Part shown: one piece after another, positions 1 to 14,581 of the stretch
Position numbering within the stretch: the first letter of the stretch is position 1
Layout of the letters: the number at the start of each line of letters is the position of its first letter
Assembly: GCA_041659085.1 (NCBI GenBank)
Contig: JBAZYZ010000014.1
Location: 836 to 15,416 of the forward strand
Source of the DNA: Minisyncoccota bacterium
GTDB taxonomy: Bacteria > Patescibacteriota > Minisyncoccia > Phycocordibacterales > VMEP01
Length of the DNA: 14,581 nt
Direction: 5' to 3'
Position numbers and translations under genes: made by a program
Notes under the pieces: generated by a model
The model's input: only the letters and a program-made list of their open reading frames with translations
The model's database searches: none
What the model was told of the DNA's origin: nothing

Positions 1-204
1 TTTGGGGGCGTCTCCCCCCGCCATGCGGCGAATGTTGCCGCTAACCAGAACAACGTCGTTCCCGATACGCATGAACTGGGGGTTCCATCCGAGGGATATG
101 CTCCATTTCCCGTGAATAAACCTCCACTCTCCGCGCACTTCGTCAAAAACAAGCGCGGGGGCCTCTTTTTGGGCTGGCATAGCGGCCGTCGTTTCTGTTC
201 CCAT
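1..204 (-). CDS. hypothetical protein, N-terminal part only; the ORF continues past the window start
   Basis: ATG at 204..202 with GAGGAG 6-7 nt upstream (reverse complement of 205-216). Open frame to position 1, translating MGTETTAAMPAQKEAPALVFDEVRGEWRFIHGKWSISLGWNPQFMRIGNDVVLVSGNIRRMAGGDAPK. No recognisable family. Local GC is higher than the window average. Confidence 0.35.
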   Translation of the reverse strand, partial: MGTETTAAMPAQKEAPALVFDEVRGEWRFIHGKWSISLGWNPQFMRIGNDVVLVSGNIRRMAGGDAPK

Positions 205-2994: not shown

Positions 2995-3040
2995 GTAAAG
3001 TAAATTTGAATAATAAAAAGGTAAAGTTTTAAAATAATAT

Positions 3041-3113
3041 CCGCCCGTAGCTCAGTTGGTAGAGCAGTTGCCTCTTAAGCAAATGGTCGTAGGTTCGATT
3101 CCTACCGGGCGGA
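3041..3113 (+). tRNA. tRNA-Lys (anticodon CTT)
   Basis: Acceptor CCGCCCG/CGGGCGG. D-arm GCTC-AGTTGGTA-GAGC. Anticodon loop CTCTTAA with one non-WC pair at 27-43. T-arm GTAGG-TTCGATT-CCTAC, discriminator A. Confidence 0.85.
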
Positions 3114-3420: not shown

Positions 3421-3441
3421 AAAATAATGTTGTAAAATAAG

Positions 3442-3487
3442 GGTTAAAATTCAACCTAAAATCAAAATTTTGGGATGAATTTTAACC
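3442..3487. promoter_or_regulatory. 12-bp perfect inverted repeat (GGTTAAAATTCA ... TGAATTTTAACC) with a 22-nt spacer containing the 10-bp palindrome CAAAATTTTG; candidate operator or tRNA-cluster terminator
   Basis: The arms are exact reverse complements. The right arm ends 1 nt before the -35 of the downstream promoter, and a T-rich stretch (TTGACTTTTATCT) follows. Confidence 0.4.
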
Positions 3488-3516
3488 TTGACTTTTATCT
3501 CAAAACATGCTTAAAT
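3488..3516 (+). promoter_or_regulatory. candidate sigma70-like promoter: TTGACT, 17-nt spacer, TTAAAT
   Basis: -35 TTGACT at 3488-3493, 17-nt spacer, -10 TTAAAT at 3511-3516. Sits about 80 nt upstream of the 3595 ATG, which has an AAAGGAG SD. Confidence 0.4.
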
Positions 3517-3594
3517 TGAGACAGTTTTAGATTCGTCCCGGGTATGGAGAATCCTCTCTATCCCCGCCTGAAAATCTTAAAGGAGTAACTGGAA

Positions 3595-4770
3595 ATGGAA
3601 GCAATCTGGGAAAACATGCAAAGTATTCTCACGGTAATCGGCTATATCATCGGAGGAATAGTCGTGATTGCATCAATCTCTTTTGTCATTTTCTTGGGCG
3701 TTAAGATGGCGCCCATTCTTATCGACAAAAACCTCAAGCTAAGCAGAGTAAGAACTCTGTTCATATCGGGACCAATATTAACTATCGCGGGTTGGCCGAT
3801 ATTCCTCGTATTGATTCAGGTTTTATTCTGGATGACAAACTGGATAATCGGCAACTCTTACCTTGAGCACAATACCGTGACAATCGTTGCGGGATTATTC
3901 CTAAGCATTGCTTATTTTTACATCGGCGGGCTCGCCAAGGTAAAGAAAGCCAGTGTTGGGATGCCGGAAATTTTCGGCGCGCGCAGGGTTGGTTTCGTTC
4001 TGCCGGAGGGGTACTGTCATATTCCCCCGCGGCCGTTCATGAGCTACACAGAAACGCCAATAGAACTCATCACCACAAAACTGAACGAACCTATGGAGGT
4101 ATTAGTCGGCAAACAAATCAGCGCGGACCCCAACCAACCCCAGGCGGGACAAGTAATTCCTGATAACAAGCTTGTCTCAGAAGTGAAAATGAAAGTTGAC
4201 GCTTCTATAGCATGGCAGGCGGACCCCTTAAACCTTCTTGGGTACACAAGCGTTCAAGACGGCGCAAAGGGTGTTGAAAAAGCTCTGGTTGACATAATGC
4301 GCCGGGTCATTCGTGAAAAAGCGCAAGGGATGTCTGACTCTGAATTCCTGAAGGGGCAAAAAGATCTTGAAGAAGCCCTCAAAGCGGCGCTCGAAGCTCC
4401 ACTTAACGCCGAAGAAGAAGCCAAGAAAGCATCCAACGGAGACTGGCACAATCTAATCAGGCGACTGGGAATAACGGTAATCAAGATTCAGGTAACAAAA
4501 ATCGTTCCCGCGTCAGAGGAGATGATTACCAGGCTTGAAAGGATTCGCGGGGAACAACTTGACCAGGAGGCGGAAAAGAACCAGGTGCGTCATCTTATCG
4601 ACAACCTGGCTGGTCCCCTGATAAAAGAGCTCAACGTAAGTCCCGAAGCAGGTCTCCGTGCCGCGCTTGCCACCACTAAAGACGCGACAATGATCATAGT
4701 CGATGGCGCGGCAGGCGACTTCACGAAAGGGCAAGCTCTCGCCGCAAACAGTGGAAACCAAAGGAGGTAA
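3595..4770 (+). CDS. membrane-anchored SPFH/band-7 (stomatin/prohibitin/flotillin-like) domain protein
   Basis: About four N-terminal TM helices, then PEIFGARRVGFVLPEGYCHIPPRPFMSYTETPIELITTKL...VKMKVDASIAWQADP...WHNLIRRLGITVIKIQVTKIVP, which fits the Band_7 core pattern (G.hf.iP.i..v..vdlr / v.vda.v.yrv.dp / GieV..v.I.di.pp). A coiled-coil-like Glu/Lys/Ala-rich segment lies between. Good SD. Confidence 0.6.
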   Translation: MEAIWENMQSILTVIGYIIGGIVVIASISFVIFLGVKMAPILIDKNLKLSRVRTLFISGPILTIAGWPIFLVLIQVLFWMTNWIIGNSYLEHNTVTIVAGLFLSIAYFYIGGLAKVKKASVGMPEIFGARRVGFVLPEGYCHIPPRPFMSYTETPIELITTKLNEPMEVLVGKQISADPNQPQAGQVIPDNKLVSEVKMKVDASIAWQADPLNLLGYTSVQDGAKGVEKALVDIMRRVIREKAQGMSDSEFLKGQKDLEEALKAALEAPLNAEEEAKKASNGDWHNLIRRLGITVIKIQVTKIVPASEEMITRLERIRGEQLDQEAEKNQVRHLIDNLAGPLIKELNVSPEAGLRAALATTKDATMIIVDGAAGDFTKGQALAANSGNQRR

Positions 4771-4775
4771 CAATC

Positions 4776-5240
4776 ATGCTCCATCCTAACGTTGACAAAG
4801 GCATTTCAGCAACCTTCAAGTGGCTGGGTGTTTCAGCTTTAATCATCCTGGTCATCGGCGTGGGCGTAAGCGTCTACAAAAAAGTCAAACAAGACGCGCC
4901 TCCGCCTCCGCCTCCCCCCTCAGCAAGCGCTCTCATGGCAAGAGGTGGCATAGGACCGGAAATTAGAATGGTCCTGGCGCCAAGGGATGATTGGTCGGAC
5001 GGAGTTGATGCGACCGACAAGTCAAACAATATGTACCCGATTGGCGGAGGATGCTACAGGGTAAAGGTCAATGGAAAAGTGGCCACAAACGGCGCCGGGA
5101 AAGAAGAAATTTGCAACGGCGACGATGTTGCGGGCGGACAAAATACCGCCACTCGCCTCATTTTGAGATTCCAGTCTGCCGAAAAAGACAGGGACCTCAC
5201 GATGAAGGTGACCATGCATCGGAAGCCTCCCCGTGTGTAA
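4776..5240 (+). CDS. small membrane protein: one TM helix, poly-Pro linker (PPPPPPP), Cys-containing beta-rich C-terminal domain; co-operonic partner of the SPFH gene
   Basis: ATG lies 5 nt after the SPFH stop with a GGAGG SD 9 nt upstream. 154 aa with no recognisable family. Its position is analogous to NfeD partners of SPFH proteins (inference only). Confidence 0.5.
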   Translation: MLHPNVDKGISATFKWLGVSALIILVIGVGVSVYKKVKQDAPPPPPPPSASALMARGGIGPEIRMVLAPRDDWSDGVDATDKSNNMYPIGGGCYRVKVNGKVATNGAGKEEICNGDDVAGGQNTATRLILRFQSAEKDRDLTMKVTMHRKPPRV

Positions 5241-9551: not shown

Positions 9552-12014
9552 CTAGAGGCACGTAAGAGAAGCTATGCTGTCTCCCGCGCGGAGCTTCATG
9601 ATACGCACGCCCTGTGTCTGCCTGCCGAGCGACGGCACGGAACTCAAATCTACTCTGACTACCTGGCTCTTTTTGGACATAGCGATAATTTGCGACATAT
9701 CTTCGCTTACAACCTCTGCTGCCATCACATTCCCTGTCTTGGCGGTTACCTTGGCTGTCTTGATGCCGGACCCGCCGCGTTTTTGCACCTTGTATTCTTT
9801 TATTGCTGTTCTCTTACCGAAACCGTTTTCCATCATAACCAGAAACATCGGGCCCTTGGATTCCTTTTTAACGACATCGGCTCCAATGAGCACGTCTCCA
9901 CGACCGAGCTTCATCCCGCGCACACCGCCCGCGGCGCGACCCATTTCGCGGATATCGGATTCTTTAAATCTTATCGCTTGACCTTTCTTGGTCGCCAATA
10001 TTACTTCATCGCCCTTATCCGTAAATAGCGTAGACAAAAGCAGATCGCCTTCCGAAAGTTTTATGGCAATGATACCGTTCCTGCGCACATCCTTGAAACT
10101 CTCGGCGGAAACTTTTTTGGCGGTGCCTTCTTTGGTAACCATGAGTATTGAAAGAGTGGCATTCTTAACCGCTTTCGGCATCGCCAAAATGGATGTCACT
10201 TTCTCATCGCCCCCGAGCTGGAGGAAATTCATTATTGACTTGCCTTTGGTGGCGCGGCGTCCTTCCGGTATGTCATACATTTTTATCTGATACGCCTTGC
10301 CTTTGTCGGTAAAGAACAGGAGATCGCTGTGGGTATTTGCGGTAAGGAGGTGCGTCACAAAATCCTCCTCCTTGGTGTCCAAATCAACCACACCCACGCC
10401 GCCGCGCTTCTGAACGCGGTATTCCGCAGGGTCGGTGCGCTTCACGTAACCGCCGGCTGTATAGACCAGAACGGATTCTTTTTCCGGAATTAAATCTTCC
10501 TCGGATATAACTTTGACCCCGCCTTTTATGACTTTGGTTCGGCGTTCATCACCGTACTTTGCTTTCGCTTCAACAAGTTCGTCCTTTACCACTTTCAAAA
10601 TCTTTTTGGCACTGGACAAAAGTTCCTTAAGTTTGCTTATAAAATCCTGAACTTCACTGAGTTCTTCTTCTATTTTCTTTCTTTCAAGTCCGGCAAGTTT
10701 CTGCAATTTCATTTCCAAAATCGCGGTAGCCTGGATTGCCGAGAACTTAAATTCTTTCATCAAATTGGCGTGCGCAGTCGGAGTATCTTTGGAACTTTTT
10801 ATGGTCTTTATTATTTGGTCTATGTGGTCAAGCGCCTTTTTTAGCCCGAGTAAAATATGCTCGCGTTCCAGAGCTTTCTTCAAATCAAACTCTGTTCGGC
10901 GGCGGACAATAACCTCGCGGTGCGAGATAAACTCCTTAAGCATGGCCCTAAGCGACAGTGTCTGCGGCACACCATCCACCAATGCCAAGACGTTGAAGTG
11001 AAAAACGTTTTCAAGCTCCGAGTGCTTGTAGAGATAGTTCAGAACCTTTTGCGGATGAATACCCGTCTTCAAATCTATGACTATGCGGATATCTTTGGTT
11101 GATTCGTCGCGGATATCTTTTATGCCTTCCAGTTTTTTCTCGTGGACCAAGTCCGCAATGTGGACTATAAGATCAGCCTTGTTTACGCGGTACGGAATGG
11201 AACTGATTATTATCTGGAATTGCCCGCTCTTGGTCTCAATAATCTCAGCTTCGCCGCGGCAAACCACCCCGCCCCGACCGGAAGCGTAAGCATGATGAAC
11301 TTCTTTATCGGCAAAAATGATTCCGCCGGTCGGAAAATCCGGCCCTTTTACGTACGTAAGCAAGTCTTCATTGGTTGCTTCTTCGTCGTCTATAAGATGA
11401 ATGGTGGCGTCAACCACTTCATTTAAGTTATGCGGCGGGACGGAAGTTGCCATGCCGACGGCAATACCAAGCGTGCCATTCAAAAGAAGATTGGGCAACG
11501 AGGCAGGCAAAACGGCAGGTTCTTTTTTGGTGTTGTCATAGTTGGGCCGCCACTCAACAGTTTCCTTATCCAAATCGCGGAGCATTTCGCTTGAAATCTT
11601 GGACATCTTGGCTTCCGTATAACGCATAGCCGCGGCTGAATCGCCGTCTATTGAGCCGAAGTTACCCTGACCTACGATGAGAGGATAGCGCATGGAAAAA
11701 TCCTGAGTCATTTTAACCATGGAATCATATACCGCCACGTCTCCATGCGGATGATATTTACCAAGCACCTCTCCAACCACGTTTGAAGATTTGCGGGTCT
11801 TTGCGGAGGAAGTGAGTCCAATCTCGTTCATCGCGTAGAGGATGCGCCGATGCACAGGTTTCAACCCGTCACGGACGTCAGGGAGCGCGCGCGAAGTGAT
11901 AACTGACATGGCGTAGTCCAAGTACGAAGTTCGCATTTCATGCGAAATTCCAACGGACACAATACCGTCTTCCAAAGCTCTTTTTGGGGCTATGTCCTTA
12001 TCCTTAGAAGCCAT
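9552..12014 (-). CDS. gyrA: DNA gyrase subunit A
   Basis: 820 aa. N-terminal breakage-reunion domain with the active-site Tyr region ([11 protein letters not shown]), QRDR-like block ([13 protein letters not shown]), C-terminal beta-pinwheel repeats and a GyrA-box-like QKRGGVG. The GyrA box argues for gyrase rather than topoisomerase IV. Confidence 0.93.
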
Positions 12015-12035
12015 AATTACTGTTTATACTAACAT

Positions 12036-12073
12036 AAATGAGTCATTTTTTCAAACAAAAAAATGACTCATTT
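12036..12073. promoter_or_regulatory. 16-bp perfect inverted repeat (AAATGAGTCATTTTTT - caaaca - AAAAAATGACTCATTT) between the small membrane-protein gene and the gyrA start
   Basis: Arms are exact reverse complements. It lies 22 nt upstream of the gyrA ATG and 23 nt downstream of the preceding gene stop. On the minus transcript it is not followed by a clean U-run. Confidence 0.5.
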
Positions 12074-12095
12074 ATGTCTTCATCCTGTTTTAAAT

Positions 12096-12407
12096 TTAGA
12101 ACTTTAGTTGACTTTTCAGCCCGGAAAAATTTCCAGAAAACGAGTTTTTAAAACTACCCCAATTGTCCTTGATAAGAAAAACCGGGGTAGCGATGTTTGG
12201 AGTTGAAGCGGAAGACTTATTCTCCGGCGGATTAAACAAAATGCTCCAGGAGGTAAGCCAAGTCACAAAAATAATGCCGGTAATGGAGACCGTGGACACC
12301 AGTAAGATGGCTCGGCGCACGTGAACGGGTTTTGAACGGAGTTTGTGCAGATAAGAAAGCATGGTATTTACACGATGCCAATATACGAATCCGTTAATCA
12401 TTCGCAC
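12096..12407 (-). CDS. small single-pass membrane protein, hypothetical; the true start may be the internal ATG at about 12362
   Basis: One TM helix (AILLVSTVSITGIIFVTWLTSW) plus a short Ser/Asn-rich tail. No family recognised. Sits immediately downstream of the MBL-fold gene. Confidence 0.35.
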   Translation of the reverse strand: MRMINGFVYWHRVNTMLSYLHKLRSKPVHVRRAILLVSTVSITGIIFVTWLTSWSILFNPPENKSSASTPNIATPVFLIKDNWGSFKNSFSGNFSGLKSQLKF

Positions 12408-12408
12408 A

Positions 12409-13038
12409 TTAGCCTTGCGGTTTTAATAGAACAATATCCCCTTCCTTCCCCTCAATATCTTTTCTCTTGACGGTATATTTATCCAATTCCTCCGCGTCTT
12501 CAGCGCTGCCTTCTTTCAGGAAAACCCTGAGAGCTGCCGCGTCATAATCCATAGGAATAATAACTTTCGGTCCGAATGACGAGGCAAGATTATAAGCATC
12601 GCGCGGGCCAAGTCCGGGGAGCCCCACCGGAACAAAAATAATATCCACACCGTCTATCGCTTCTTTTATTTCAGGTGACAAATCTTTTGCGGTAAGCGCG
12701 CCCAAAATACACATATTTATACCGTCCAGAGAAAGTGTATATATGGTATTTATAAATTTTTCACCTCCAACCTCCGCAACGCTTGGAAAGCCTTTTATAA
12801 AAATTCCCTTAACTTCATACTCGCCGGGGCCTGACAAAATAAGCGGTTTTTTCTCGCCGAAAGTTATTCCGTCCGCGCCGTTGTAATCGGGGTGATTAAT
12901 TGATATTAGCCCGACGTCGGCGCCAAAGCGTGAACCGCTCAGTTTTGAATCCTTGCCTATCGGATTAACGGCAATAACCGTATCCCCTAACTGCATCTTG
13001 AAGAATTGCTTGCCGAAGTAAGTTAAAATCATGACCAA
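12409..13038 (-). CDS. metallo-beta-lactamase-fold (COG2220-like) protein with a degenerate metal-binding motif
   Basis: ILTYFGKQ...VIAVNPIG...ADVGLISINHPDYNG follows the MBL-fold pattern (M.ITyLGhs....iliDP....aDvvliSH.H.DH), but H-x-H-x-D-H is replaced by INHPDYNG. Confidence 0.5.
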   Translation of the reverse strand: MVMILTYFGKQFFKMQLGDTVIAVNPIGKDSKLSGSRFGADVGLISINHPDYNGADGITFGEKKPLILSGPGEYEVKGIFIKGFPSVAEVGGEKFINTIYTLSLDGINMCILGALTAKDLSPEIKEAIDGVDIIFVPVGLPGLGPRDAYNLASSFGPKVIIPMDYDAAALRVFLKEGSAEDAEELDKYTVKRKDIEGKEGDIVLLKPQG

Positions 13039-13419
13039 AAGTATACCAAATTTATAGAAAAATATAAATCGCGCAGAAAATACGATTTTTTATCCCGCTT
13101 GGAAGCGACTCCCAAGAGACCGCCTTGTCTGTTTATCCCTTGCTGTTTTTAAATAAATAGGGTAGAAATCAAATAGGTGTATGCAAGGAACAACAGTGGC
13201 CAGGCACGGTGCCGAAACCAGCAAGTTGTTTTTTGCGGGAAGGAGGTGATCCAAAGCCCGACAGGCAATACTATAGGTCTACTTCATTCCGGCAGTACAA
13301 AAACAAGGAGGCTTCTATCGGGAACATAAACCACTAGAAATTCCACACCTCGGCCTTCAATGGCCAAAACCAAAGTGCGAGCCTTGGGGCCCGCACACCA
13401 GAACCACCAGTAATACTGG

Positions 13420-13450
13420 AACCCCGGCTTGCCCGGGGTTTCTTCATTTT
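13420..13450 (+). terminator. terminator-like hairpin plus T-rich tail
   Basis: Stem AACCCCGG/CCGGGGTT with loop CTTGC, followed by TCTTCATTTTT. No long ORF lies upstream on the plus strand. A 17-codon sORF (MAKTKVRALGPAHQNHQ) ends 8 nt before it. Confidence 0.4.
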
Positions 13451-13563
13451 TAAAATGGACTTGACAATAAATATATGTTGTGACAAGGTGGTAAGAAGTC
13501 AAAAGCTACGGGAAACCGACGGGCCAATGATGAGTTCAATTTCAACTTCAAAAGGAAACGACA

Positions 13564-13734
13564 ATGGCACCCGCACGCGCAGGCCCGGGGAACAATTCCC
13601 GGAGAGTAAATTCAAGGATTTCTTCGATCGCCACGATCGCTTTCGCCGGCGCCAATGGATCCGCCAACGCTGCGAACGACCAGGGCCTGGGCAACTTCAA
13701 CTGCAGCACCGGCGCCGGCGGCAACACGCCCTAG
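13564..13734 (+). CDS. candidate 56-aa secreted small protein (Sec-type signal peptide plus about 20-aa Gly-rich mature peptide)
   Basis: AAAGGAAA lies 7 nt upstream of the ATG. Product MAPARAGPGNNSRRVNSRISSIATIAFAGANGSANA|ANDQGLGNFNCSTGAGGNTP has a basic n-region, a 12-residue h-region and an AXA site. It lies in a GC-rich stretch where spurious ORFs are likely. Confidence 0.2.
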   Translation: MAPARAGPGNNSRRVNSRISSIATIAFAGANGSANAANDQGLGNFNCSTGAGGNTP

Positions 13735-14222
13735 CGCTACGGCTGGCCCGATTCGCTTTTAGCCACAACCTTATCGCGTGAAGCGATGAGTAGGCCAAGT
13801 AAATCGAGCGGCGTGTAGAAGTTCTCGGGAGCATTCGGCTGGATGTCTTCCGAGCGTAGGACCGGAGCAGTGGCGGCGATTATCGAGCGACGGGGACCTG
13901 AAATAATGTCCATCGCCCATTCGCCCACACGCGAGCTTCGGTAGAATGCCGGCATCGTTGAACGGAGCGCCCCTGGCCCATCAGCCAATAGCGCCGTTCG
14001 GGACAGCGATAGCCGACGCGCGACCGGCGGGGGCGGCGATGAAATGATACGCCCCCGCCGGAACGCGAATCCATTTTTTGTTTTCTTTTTGAGGGAGGAA
14101 ACGTTGTACCCGAGAGGTTAAAAAACCTACGGAATAACTTTGAAATTTTTTGAGGAAGGCCGCCATGAAACGCTTCTTTCCAACACCGCCCAGGCGACGC
14201 TCACCAGCGTAGCCGCGCGAAG

Positions 14223-14250
14223 AAGCCCCGCGATTGCGGGGCTTTAAACT
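14223..14250 (+). terminator. GC-rich 9-bp hairpin with a weak T-tail
   Basis: AAGCCCCGC-gatt-GCGGGGCTT followed by TAAACTTTG, 11 nt after the stop of a 15-codon sORF. Confidence 0.3.
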
Positions 14251-14279
14251 TTGTACTTGTCCGTTTACACAAATTCCCG

Positions 14280-14318
14280 CCACTTGGAGGTTGAGCCTCC
14301 AAGTGGCTTGTTTTTTTT
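14280..14318 (+). terminator. strong intrinsic terminator
   Basis: Perfect 11-bp stem CCACTTGGAGG/CCTCCAAGTGG, loop TTGAG, then CTTG plus eight T residues. Confidence 0.6.
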
Positions 14319-14416
14319 AGCCCATGATGTATAGTGTCTCCATTACCAGCGGCGCTCCCAAGGTAACCCCATCACTTTCCGGAAATACAGCCCGTGACGG
14401 AACCAGGGAAGCAGAT

Positions 14417-14441
14417 ACCGCATATGTGCGGTTTTTTATTT
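14417..14441 (+). terminator. terminator-like hairpin plus T-run
   Basis: ACCGCA-tatg-TGCGGT followed by TTTTTTATTTGTTT. Confidence 0.4.
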
Positions 14442-14481
14442 GTTTACTCACCACGAAACAAATAAAAAACGATTTAATAAT

Positions 14482-14581
14482 ATGAAAGATACTGACACAA
14501 TAGAGATACAAGATGTTGTCGCCCGCAACATGGATGAGGAGAAAACTCCGTCGGGAAAGATGCTCTTGGACAAGAGCGTCC
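14482..14581 (+). CDS. hypothetical protein, 5' end only; the ORF runs off the window
   Basis: ATG at 14482 and an open frame to the window edge (MKDTDTIEIQDVVARNMDEEKTPSGKMLLDKSV). AT-rich upstream region with no SD. Confidence 0.25.
   Translation, partial: MKDTDTIEIQDVVARNMDEEKTPSGKMLLDKSV

Follow-up and report, generated by a model that had tools for sequence, protein, structure and literature searches.

A probable island of small transcription units upstream of rpsA

A 14,581-nucleotide (nt) stretch of DNA from a Minisyncoccota bacterium (contig JBAZYZ010000014.1, positions 836 to 15,416; referred to here as the window) contains, at window positions 13039 to 14481, a gene-poor spacer that is probably a functional island of small plus-strand transcription units, located before rpsA in one Paceibacterota lineage. 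The island would comprise a small RNA (sRNA; unit A), a short open reading frame (ORF) followed by a GC-rich RNA domain (unit B), and a structured leader of rpsA (unit E), along with two insulating hairpin modules (units C and D). As judged by comparison with related contigs, the architecture, the putative promoters, the frame and a peptide motif of the unit B ORF, a site in unit A complementary to the 3' tail of 16S rRNA, and the structure of unit E are conserved. All features of the spacer described below lie on the plus strand of the window unless stated otherwise.

The spacer is exactly the interval between a minus-strand gene for a metallo-β-lactamase (MBL)-fold protein (12409 to 13032; Pfam match Lactamase_B_3) and an rpsA-like gene that starts with an ATG at 14483 and is truncated by the window edge (14483 to 14581). 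The MBL-fold protein is identical to P0001, an entry from a “Candidatus Paceibacterota bacterium” metagenome-assembled genome (MAG). By blastn, the rpsA-like fragment matches the gene starts of L002 and L008, two of the related contigs introduced below, and it aligns to the N terminus of the 375-amino-acid (aa), four-domain ribosomal protein S1 homologue of the relatives; for the L002 homologue, the top NCBIfam matches are 30S ribosomal protein S1 (rpsA) models, every one of them under the equivalog cutoff.

The initial annotation, made from the sequence alone, had described the spacer as devoid of ORFs with protein character, and this description holds: a Pfam scan of its six-frame translations returned zero families at an E value of ≤1, and the ORFs of at least 60 aa (64 to 108 aa) overlap one another across several frames. 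The rise in GC content that had been noted between about 13500 and 14300 is likewise borne out in 300-nt windows, with values of 0.57 to 0.61 over 13501 to 14250 against a maximum of 0.557 elsewhere in the window and a typical 0.40 to 0.50 (about 46%); across the island, GC content is 10 to 15 points higher than in the flanks. A similar GC richness had been claimed for the partial gene at the 5' edge (1 to 204), a claim to which the value of 0.53 over positions 1 to 300 lends little weight. Compared with shuffled sequences, the segment from 13500 to 14320 folds with a z score of -6.4 on the plus strand and -4.2 on the minus strand.

Five hairpin/T-run sites are present on the plus strand of the spacer. 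Four had been listed as terminator-like at the outset: three of them (13418 to 13442, 14279 to 14307, and 14417 to 14432) were detected by the terminator scan, the one at 14223 to 14250 has a real stem but a weak T tract and fails the scan, and a fifth, larger hairpin (about 14013 to 14090) had been overlooked. The scan total of 6 sites, compared with 3.0 ± 1.6 in shuffles, is a modest excess taken alone.

The Rfam scan that the initial annotation had proposed revealed no known RNA family in the region: nothing in the spacer reached the gathering threshold and only noise appeared at an E value of ≤10, the four tRNAs of the window, outside the region, being alone in reaching the threshold. ARAGORN detected no tRNA or tmRNA in the region, none of units A to E was matched in Rfam or Pfam, and Rfam at an E value of ≤0.1 on eight relatives gave nothing usable, the sole match being a 17-nt T-arm-like tmRNA fragment in L077. 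Blastn against phage and plasmid collections produced no match to the region. Within the island, no terminal repeats and no transposase or integrase remnant were found, and no repeat ties it to the rest of the window.

The units recur in order in related genomes

The relatives used for comparison were contigs encoding close homologues of the MBL-fold protein (64 to 84% identity), all from MAGs of Paceibacteria or Patescibacteria. A comparable gene-poor spacer upstream of the MBL gene was identified in nine independent relatives (L002, L008, L072, L077, L079, L007, L071, L073, and L078), as well as in L009. Blastn aligned the window to the relatives only over the final ~100 to 135 nt before rpsA, which correspond to unit E, and over the gene start. 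When read side by side, the window and L072, L077, L079, L002, L008, L007, L078, and L009 (MBL identities of 64 to 82%) share the order, strand, and architecture of the units, except that unit A is missing in L078 and L009, the two most distant, and unit D is missing in L078. In searches with nhmmer and covariance models (CMs), the island units are single copy per locus. The proposal of a cluster of small-protein or sRNA genes is thereby supported, given that the same ordered units, with conserved putative promoters and terminators, occur in the relatives and that the 56-codon ORF of unit B keeps its frame, its Shine-Dalgarno (SD)-like sequence, and its peptide motif.

Pairing of rpsA with the MBL gene was found in 47 loci, and in about 21 more distant ones the two genes are direct divergent neighbors, 185 to 410 nt apart. 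Units B and C are present from an MBL identity of ~64% upward and unit A from ~72%. Because units A to D are absent where rpsA and the MBL gene adjoin directly, they are, on this comparison, additions in one lineage to an older divergent rpsA/MBL pair. The idea of a horizontally acquired fragment, raised initially, thus survives insofar as units A to D are a lineage-specific gain; it does not account for the high GC content and strong folding, which persist in every relative despite the divergence of the primary sequence. Given this persistence, the high GC content more likely stems from selection on RNA structure than from a foreign base composition. A pseudogene or decayed locus, the remaining initial suggestion, was rejected: no domain was detected in any frame, tblastx among the relatives gave only all-frame, stop-containing matches with no frame-specific similarity, and the island does not resemble the genes that fill the rpsA-MBL spacer in other relatives.

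Unit E is a structured rpsA leader

Unit E (14336 to 14445; ~100 nt) is a leader RNA with a structure supported by strong covariation, and it represents a previously uncatalogued rpsA leader and putative attenuator. Its putative promoter (14308 to 14335) consists of TTGTTT and TATAGT separated by a 16-nt spacer; TTG and T..TATA.T are invariant in six aligned relatives, the general form being TTGnnn, 16 to 17 nt, and TATAnT. A CM built from five sequences and rebuilt from 18 yielded 42 matches at an E value of ≤0.01, each on the rpsA strand and directly upstream of an S1 homologue, so that 42 of the 47 related rpsA loci carry the motif, most of them without units A to D. Among 41 distinct sequences, 79% of cells are paired, compared with 38 to 50% when the partners are slid, and both partners have changed in 14 of the 19 pairs. 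A covariation score of 0.404 was obtained, the slid controls giving 0.04 to 0.14, and none of 500 shuffles reached it; fitting of the alignment to the model somewhat inflates these figures, the margin being large. A metagenome pattern scan for unit E recovered only copies identical to those of L002 and L008.

The 3' strand of P1, the closing helix of unit E, (U)CCGC (14418 to 14421), doubles as the 5' arm of the attenuator hairpin (14417 to 14432), which is followed by T6. Because of this double role, seen both in the window and in the alignment, the folded leader and the terminator would be mutually exclusive, an arrangement that suggests attenuation of rpsA transcription. We read this last hairpin as a putative attenuator within the rpsA leader and not as the end of an sRNA gene.

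Unit B combines a short ORF with a GC-rich RNA domain

Unit B opens with a putative promoter (13461 to 13489) made up of a -35 box, TTGACA (13461 to 13466), a 17-nt spacer, and a TG-extended -10 box, CAAGGT (13484 to 13489). Its sequence, GGGGTTGACA, is invariant in four aligned sequences, and the same box occurs in L072, L077, L078, L079, and L009. Downstream lies a small ORF (13564 to 13734) for a peptide of 56 aa (MAPARAGPGNN...STGAGGNTP); the identical peptide, P0124, was called on an independent ENA contig. An SD-like purine tract, the start codon, and a frame of 37 to 56 codons are kept in nine loci, with indels that are multiples of three. Among the short ORFs listed initially (17, 56, and 15 codons), all of which are present, this is the only conserved one.

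The unit B peptides have in common an N-terminal pattern, M-x(1-6)-[IA]-R-A-G-P, the core of which is RAGP in five (window, L002, L008, L077, and L007), RASP in L079, and HGPP in L072. In the window, the RAGP codons occupy 13576 to 13587, and a hairpin, CCGGGGAACAAUUCCCGG (13585 to 13602), begins at the Pro codon. The RAGP codons of the five copies differ solely at synonymous third positions (CGC/CGA, GGC/GGG/GGT, and CCG/CCC). The remainder of the peptide is almost neutral, with 12 to 21 nonsynonymous versus 3 to 5 synonymous codon differences (L002, L008, and L077). Toward the C terminus, a G-A-G block overlaps a GC-only palindrome, CCGGCGCCGG, and shows nearly no synonymous variation (one GGC-to-GGT change, in L008); this block is probably constrained at the nucleotide level. 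RAGP, RASP, and HGPP are among the RAPP-like arrest cores used or found by Fujiwara et al. (PMC10987492), and RAPP-like tetrapeptides, including RAGP, are subject to strong avoidance in the proteomes of bacteria (PMC12992588). Because a conserved stalling core is embedded in an otherwise unconstrained mini-ORF, we infer that the ORF encodes a regulatory, ribosome-pausing leader peptide and not a folded protein. A profile search with the peptide against a database of 5.8 billion proteins retrieved only the query sequences themselves, with none beyond the clade, and the peptide matches no Pfam family.

After the ORF come ~290 nt of noncoding, GC-rich RNA and then a terminator, with rpsA ~750 nt further along, past three more terminators and its own promoter. 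The structured 3' domain of unit B (13735 to 14012; ~60% GC) has, when the terminator is included (13735 to 14095), a GC content of 0.60 and a fold z score of -3.2; five homologous domains show GC contents of 0.59 to 0.66 and plus-strand z scores of -5.8 to -8.7, and the length among homologues ranges from 210 to 460 nt. No coding signal was detected in this domain by six-frame Pfam searches or by tblastx among the relatives. A predicted helix pairs the last codons of the ORF with sequence just past the stop, enclosing the stop codon, and a sub-hairpin, CCGCC(G/U)CCC...GGGAUGGCGG, shows compensatory changes in L002, L008, L078, L079, and L009. A viral scan with the core of the GGGAUGG hairpin gave two chance matches, both inside phage genes. 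In L009 (3590 to 3700, minus strand), the sub-hairpin with compensatory changes (~60 nt, CCGCCGCCC...GGGGAUGGCGGGCAG) is tandemly duplicated within the 3' domain.

The terminator of unit B, read directly from the sequence (14013 to 14090), is a long GC hairpin followed by a T-rich tract (14074 to 14090); the arms of its stem (14024 to 14035 and 14050 to 14061) can be extended to about 14013 to 14068. Equivalent hairpins of the form GGCC..GGGGCCGGGC / GCCCGGCCCC..GGCC with a U tract are present in L002, L008, and L077, and a similar one is present in L078. In L007 (~60 to 130, minus strand), unit B ends in an extreme poly-G/poly-C hairpin (~12 G and ~18 C) that is either real or an assembly artifact.

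Several other candidates were set aside. Base pairing between GGCCC and an upstream GGGCC was discarded as an RNA-level cause of RAGP conservation, since it is confined to the window and the RAGP codons show synonymous variation. A 108-aa ORF (13455 to 13781) starts upstream of the conserved -35 box, consists of Arg-rich, out-of-frame GC sequence, and is not conserved. Matches resembling the C/D box of snoRNAs (AUGAUGA, 13521 to 13586) were dropped because a kink-turn needs a GA that is missing from the second strand, as was a hammerhead-like sequence in L007, CUGAUGAG, given that the window has an A where the hammerhead core requires a C. Finally, a type I toxin-antitoxin system does not fit, the peptides being rich in G, S, T, and N without a hydrophobic stretch of transmembrane length and no conserved minus-strand promoter having been seen.

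Unit A carries a complement of the canonical 16S rRNA tail

Unit A (13175 to 13452) is a candidate sRNA of ~275 nt, spanning the distance from a predicted start to an intrinsic terminator (stem 13418 to 13442, with a T tract up to 13452). The putative promoter (13140 to 13168) has a -35 box, TTGCTG (13140 to 13145), a 17-nt spacer, and a -10 box, TAGAAA (13163 to 13168); in the form TTGC(A/T)(A/G)-17-TA(G/A)AAA, it aligns across eight relatives, and a consensus promoter scanner gave no call. By nhmmer and CM searches, unit A was recovered in nine relatives, at this locus only. Its fold z score is -2.75, and its 5' hairpin, helix P1 (13183 to 13236), has an apex of variable size and 7 pairs, 4 of which show compensatory changes on both sides (RNAalifold, nine sequences).

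Directly 3' of P1 is the sequence GGAAGGAGGUGAUCC, which would pair over 15 nt with the 3' tail of 16S rRNA in its canonical bacterial form, GGAUCACCUCCUUUCU, used in place of the organism's own tail. This “super-SD” site, GGAAGGAGGUGAUCCA (13238 to 13253; also designated GGAGGUGAUCC), has a predicted duplex energy of -29.2 kcal/mol with the canonical tail, whereas the runner-up, with both strands of the 14.6-kb window considered, reaches -17.2 kcal/mol, and the exact 12-mer of the site occurs once in the window. All nine homologues have a site at the equivalent position (-23.5 to -29.2 kcal/mol), its substitutions are mostly A/G changes opposite U, and unit A sites account for 9 of the 10 strongest anti-SD complements in the 1.09 Mb of related sequence scanned. 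No start codon follows the site at SD spacing. A second SD-like element, AAGGAGG, is present at 13305 to 13311, and all relatives have an AGGAGG or GGAGA block at the equivalent position. Unit A also contains a T-loop-like hairpin, GGCCUUCAAUGGCC (13352 to 13365), with a UUCAAU loop in most relatives; the 17-codon ORF (13360 to 13413) falls within the unit and is not conserved.

These features suggest that unit A may contact 30S subunits through their anti-SD tail or else fold back on itself in an SD/anti-SD-like helix. A bolder version, in which unit A is a stable, terminator-capped, ribosome-directed sRNA with an exposed 15-nt complement that captures or marks 30S subunits, as an anti-SD decoy or a chaperone of 16S 3'-end maturation, and constitutes together with the RAGP mini-ORF a module by rpsA for sensing translation status, is put forward as a speculative and rather improbable extension. 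Duplex folding of unit A against the downstream units was no better than with shuffles; it was run without a length limit and is hence uninformative.

Three further observations touch on unit A. On the minus strand of L002 (9650 to 9700) and L077 (975 to 1000), the unit contains a perfect tRNA-like T-arm, GCGGGUUCAAUCCCCGC, which the tmRNA model matches partially, over 17 nt; neither an acceptor stem nor a tag frame was detected there. In the distant relative L059 (3690 to 3990, plus strand, which is the strand of the MBL gene), the rpsA-MBL spacer carries two short units, each opening with a very strong anti-SD complement (AAGGGAGGTGATCA and AAAGGAGGTGCGCC) and having a hairpin and a final terminator, on the strand opposite to that of unit A; a run of ~100 N (3549 to 3648), possibly a scaffold gap, adjoins them. 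Among the genes of the window, 8 of 11 show weak or no SD pairing (-0.7 to -5 kcal/mol), including rpsA at 14483, and a clear SD is present only at 4776 and 3595.

Units C and D are conserved in position

Units C and D are conserved in position and loosely in sequence. Unit C (14091 to 14250) begins with an SD-like GAGGGAGGA (14091 to 14099) and contains hairpins, a 15-codon ORF (14165 to 14212), and a final hairpin (14223 to 14245) that has the form AAGCCCCGC-GAUU-GCGGGGCUU and is followed by the weak T tract noted above. Every relative has a counterpart at the same position, with GGGAG or AGGAGG at its start and a terminator and then CAUUUG at its end. The sequence of unit C aligns within subclades only, its mini-ORFs are not conserved, and no consensus fold was obtained across all relatives. 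Unit D (14279 to 14318) is a 13-bp hairpin, CUUGGAGG paired with CCUCCAAG, followed by a T8 tract that overlaps the -35 box of unit E. In the window, the hairpin pairs GGAGG with CCUCC; L072 has a near-identical hairpin, and L002, L008, and L077 have long hairpins of different sequence at this position.

A model for the island and its alternatives

In the model that we consider probable, unit E, the oldest element, would be a leader with its own promoter, the folding of which, presumably stabilized by a ligand or by S1, would decide read-through into rpsA. In unit B, translation of the 37- to 56-codon ORF, with pausing at the RAPP-like motif, would remodel or stabilize the GC-rich 3' RNA domain. 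Unit A would be a stand-alone sRNA that displays its 15-nt complement of the 16S tail just after a 5' hairpin, and units C and D would act as short hairpin/terminator modules that insulate neighboring units from one another. The high GC content of the island would reflect selection for stable RNA structure. In this reading, the units of the island all have some connection to translation.

Several points weigh against this model. Sequence and its conservation are the sole basis for the promoters, starts, and terminators, and units A to D are represented by only about nine relatives from one narrow clade, in which covariation is thin. For unit B, the two most distant ORFs (L078 and L009) lack the motif, and elsewhere the RAPP-like core occupies residues 3 to 12, with 2 to 7 residues before it and 28 to 48 codons after it, and not a position near the C terminus. 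A RAPP-like motif by itself is reported not to suffice for arrest, which also requires an upstream segment of the nascent chain in the tunnel (PMC12992588). The ORF also has no regulated gene directly downstream; this feature, the N-terminal position of the motif, and the long tail that follows it are each atypical for a leader peptide. Attempts to align the GC-rich domain of the window with its counterparts in the relatives failed, and it contains no evident copy of the conserved GGGAUGG hairpin. In unit A, the match to 16S rRNA rests on the canonical tail and not on the organism's own 16S 3' end, and predicted folds show the site partly paired (probability of being unpaired, 0.23 to 0.50) with a downstream CU-rich segment, which makes an SD/anti-SD-like helix in cis an alternative to an interaction in trans. 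For units C and D, no promoter is recognizable, and some “units” may accordingly be parts of one transcript.

This last point also favors a different organization, in which everything from the unit B promoter through rpsA is one long, multiattenuator rpsA 5' leader, with the short ORFs as leader peptides that control successive terminators and with only unit A as a separate sRNA. All units lie on the rpsA strand, a strong SD-like tract follows each terminator, sometimes with a minimal ORF (AUG-CGU-UGA in L002 and L008), and U-rich tracts precede these SD sequences, S1 being a protein that binds U-rich RNA. However, unit E has its own conserved promoter right behind a strong terminator, and it precedes rpsA in 42 loci, mostly in the absence of units A to D, which argues that rpsA is independent of the upstream units. 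Furthermore, four strong terminators in series would leave very little read-through, and the stop codon of the ORF, ~290 nt from the unit B terminator, is too distant for direct coupling of ribosome and terminator. A continuous leader is, on balance, unlikely, though it deserves consideration. The unit B ORF could, alternatively, encode a genuine small protein or a secreted peptide, in which case the GC-rich sequence would be a stabilizing 3' untranslated region and RAGP would be unrelated to stalling. The many codons past the motif, a second block (..N.S.K.GAG..) common to several relatives, and a G/S/T/N-rich composition resembling that of some secreted or modified peptides are all compatible with such a product. 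Nevertheless, the nearly neutral evolution of the sequence overall, the coincidence of the GAG block with a palindrome under apparent nucleotide-level constraint, and the failure to find a signal peptide or hydrophobic segment, nearby modification or export genes, or a family match make a functional protein product an unlikely one.

The island might also be a functionless remnant of a horizontally acquired or mobile element that was inserted between rpsA and the MBL gene and still has the GC content of its donor. Such an origin would be compatible with the lack of units A to D where the two genes adjoin, with the elevated GC content, and with the variable module content, unit A being absent in L078 and L009 and unit D differing among relatives. 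We consider it very unlikely, because no terminal repeats, transposase or integrase remnants, copies elsewhere, or phage or plasmid matches were found, because the promoters, the succession of units, the 16S-complementary site, and the frame of the ORF have been kept while neutral sequence diverged beyond the reach of blastn, and because GC content and fold stability are high in every lineage, with no drift to the genome average. Least credible, to the point of being nearly dismissed, is a sponge of the CsrB/RsmY type, in which unit A and the GGA-rich hairpins would titrate a CsrA-like or other SD-binding protein. GGA or AGGAGG motifs do occur at 13238 to 13253, 13305 to 13311, 14091 to 14099, and 14283 to 14290, and a weak match to RsmY was obtained (26.9 bits; E = 3.7e-4). 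This match (14222 to 14343), however, is on the minus strand, falls far under the gathering score (57), is carried by two back-to-back terminator hairpins, and was judged spurious; the conserved site of unit A reaches well past GGA and matches the 16S tail over 15 nt, the plus strand has only four GGAGG occurrences, barely above the compositional expectation, and no csrA gene was seen in the window.

Other features of the window

The remaining genes of the window encode IF-2, four tRNAs, an SPFH protein, a type IV secretion system (T4SS)-pilin-like protein, a solute-binding protein, a methyltransferase, and GyrA, in addition to the MBL-fold hydrolase. In the gap between the start of gyrA (12014) and an upstream 103-aa ORF, a perfect 20-nt inverted repeat (12032 to 12077; ACATAAATGAGTCATTTTTT / AAAAAATGACTCATTTATGT, 6 nt apart) could be a bidirectional terminator or an operator. 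The GyrA protein of L002 (1,044 aa; L002 positions 11173 to 14307) contains an intein (PF14890), and that of the window (820 aa; 9552 to 12014) does not. In the tRNA cluster, positions 2957 to 2988 repeat, over 32 nt and with 84% identity, the upstream flank and 5' part of tRNA-Lys (3032 to 3063), 75 nt before the real gene; this copy may be a tRNA fragment or a pseudo-tRNA. Immediately past the cluster, at 3434 to 3495, is an imperfect inverted repeat of 29 nt (83% complementary, with a 4-nt loop).

Relation to known systems and significance

Each unit is of a known kind, a ribosomal-protein leader, a RAPP-like leader peptide, or an sRNA, yet no described family corresponds to any of them, and the ORF and the sRNA both differ from the nearest known kind in a defining respect. 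Unit E resembles the leaders of ribosomal protein genes (for example, those of L10, L20, and S15 and the one in E. coli rpsA autoregulation) in being a covarying 5' leader, and terminator-based riboswitches in that its aptamer helix and intrinsic terminator would be mutually exclusive. In E. coli, rpsA control is translational and does not involve attenuation. Unlike in simple negative feedback, the folded P1 of unit E, as drawn, would favor read-through, and, in a further difference, unit E matches no Rfam family in either sequence or structure.

Unit B has the same core tetrapeptides as the RAPP-like arrest peptides, which include SecM (RAGP), ApdA/ApdP (RAPP), and the “RQH” upstream ORF family (PMC10987492, PMC12992588, PMC10951299). 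Like these, it has a small ORF that evolves fast, sits within a noncoding regulatory region, and has the motif as the main conserved feature of its peptide. Unlike in SecM, ApdA/ApdP, and RQH, the core is at codons 3 to 12 and is followed by most of the peptide; furthermore, unit B has no adjoining sec or yidC gene and no hairpin that sequesters the SD of a downstream gene, and stalling is predicted only. With its promoter, terminator, internal short ORF, and strong fold z score, in a GC-rich island of a lower-GC genome, unit B also recalls dual-function sRNAs and long, GC-rich intergenic noncoding RNAs; it shares no sequence or fold with the described structured noncoding RNA classes and differs from them in its narrow-clade distribution and in a 3' domain that is poorly conserved in sequence. 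For unit A, the closest parallel is the sensing of anti-SD availability by a strong SD in Bacteroidetes rpsU/bS21 (PMC7797042), where, as here, SD-poor genes are accompanied by an exceptional SD-like element by a ribosomal protein gene. Unlike in the Bacteroidetes case, the site in unit A is part of a noncoding sRNA and not of the translation initiation region of the ribosomal protein gene.

Bacteria of the candidate phyla radiation have tiny, densely coded genomes, and we know of almost no characterized regulatory RNAs in them; a conserved noncoding island of 1.4 kb is conspicuous for these reasons. Unit E adds a candidate rpsA leader/attenuator motif that recurs across related Paceibacteria loci and is absent from Rfam. 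Unit B, with a SecM-type RAGP core at the very start of its peptide, could serve to probe the length of nascent chain that such cores need. Unit A is a candidate sRNA with the longest anti-SD complement in ~0.5 Mb of related DNA scanned, in an organism mostly without SD sequences, and, if directed at the ribosome, it would act in a lineage whose genes mostly lack them. Thus, any of the three candidates would extend knowledge of translation control in organisms with reduced ribosomes.

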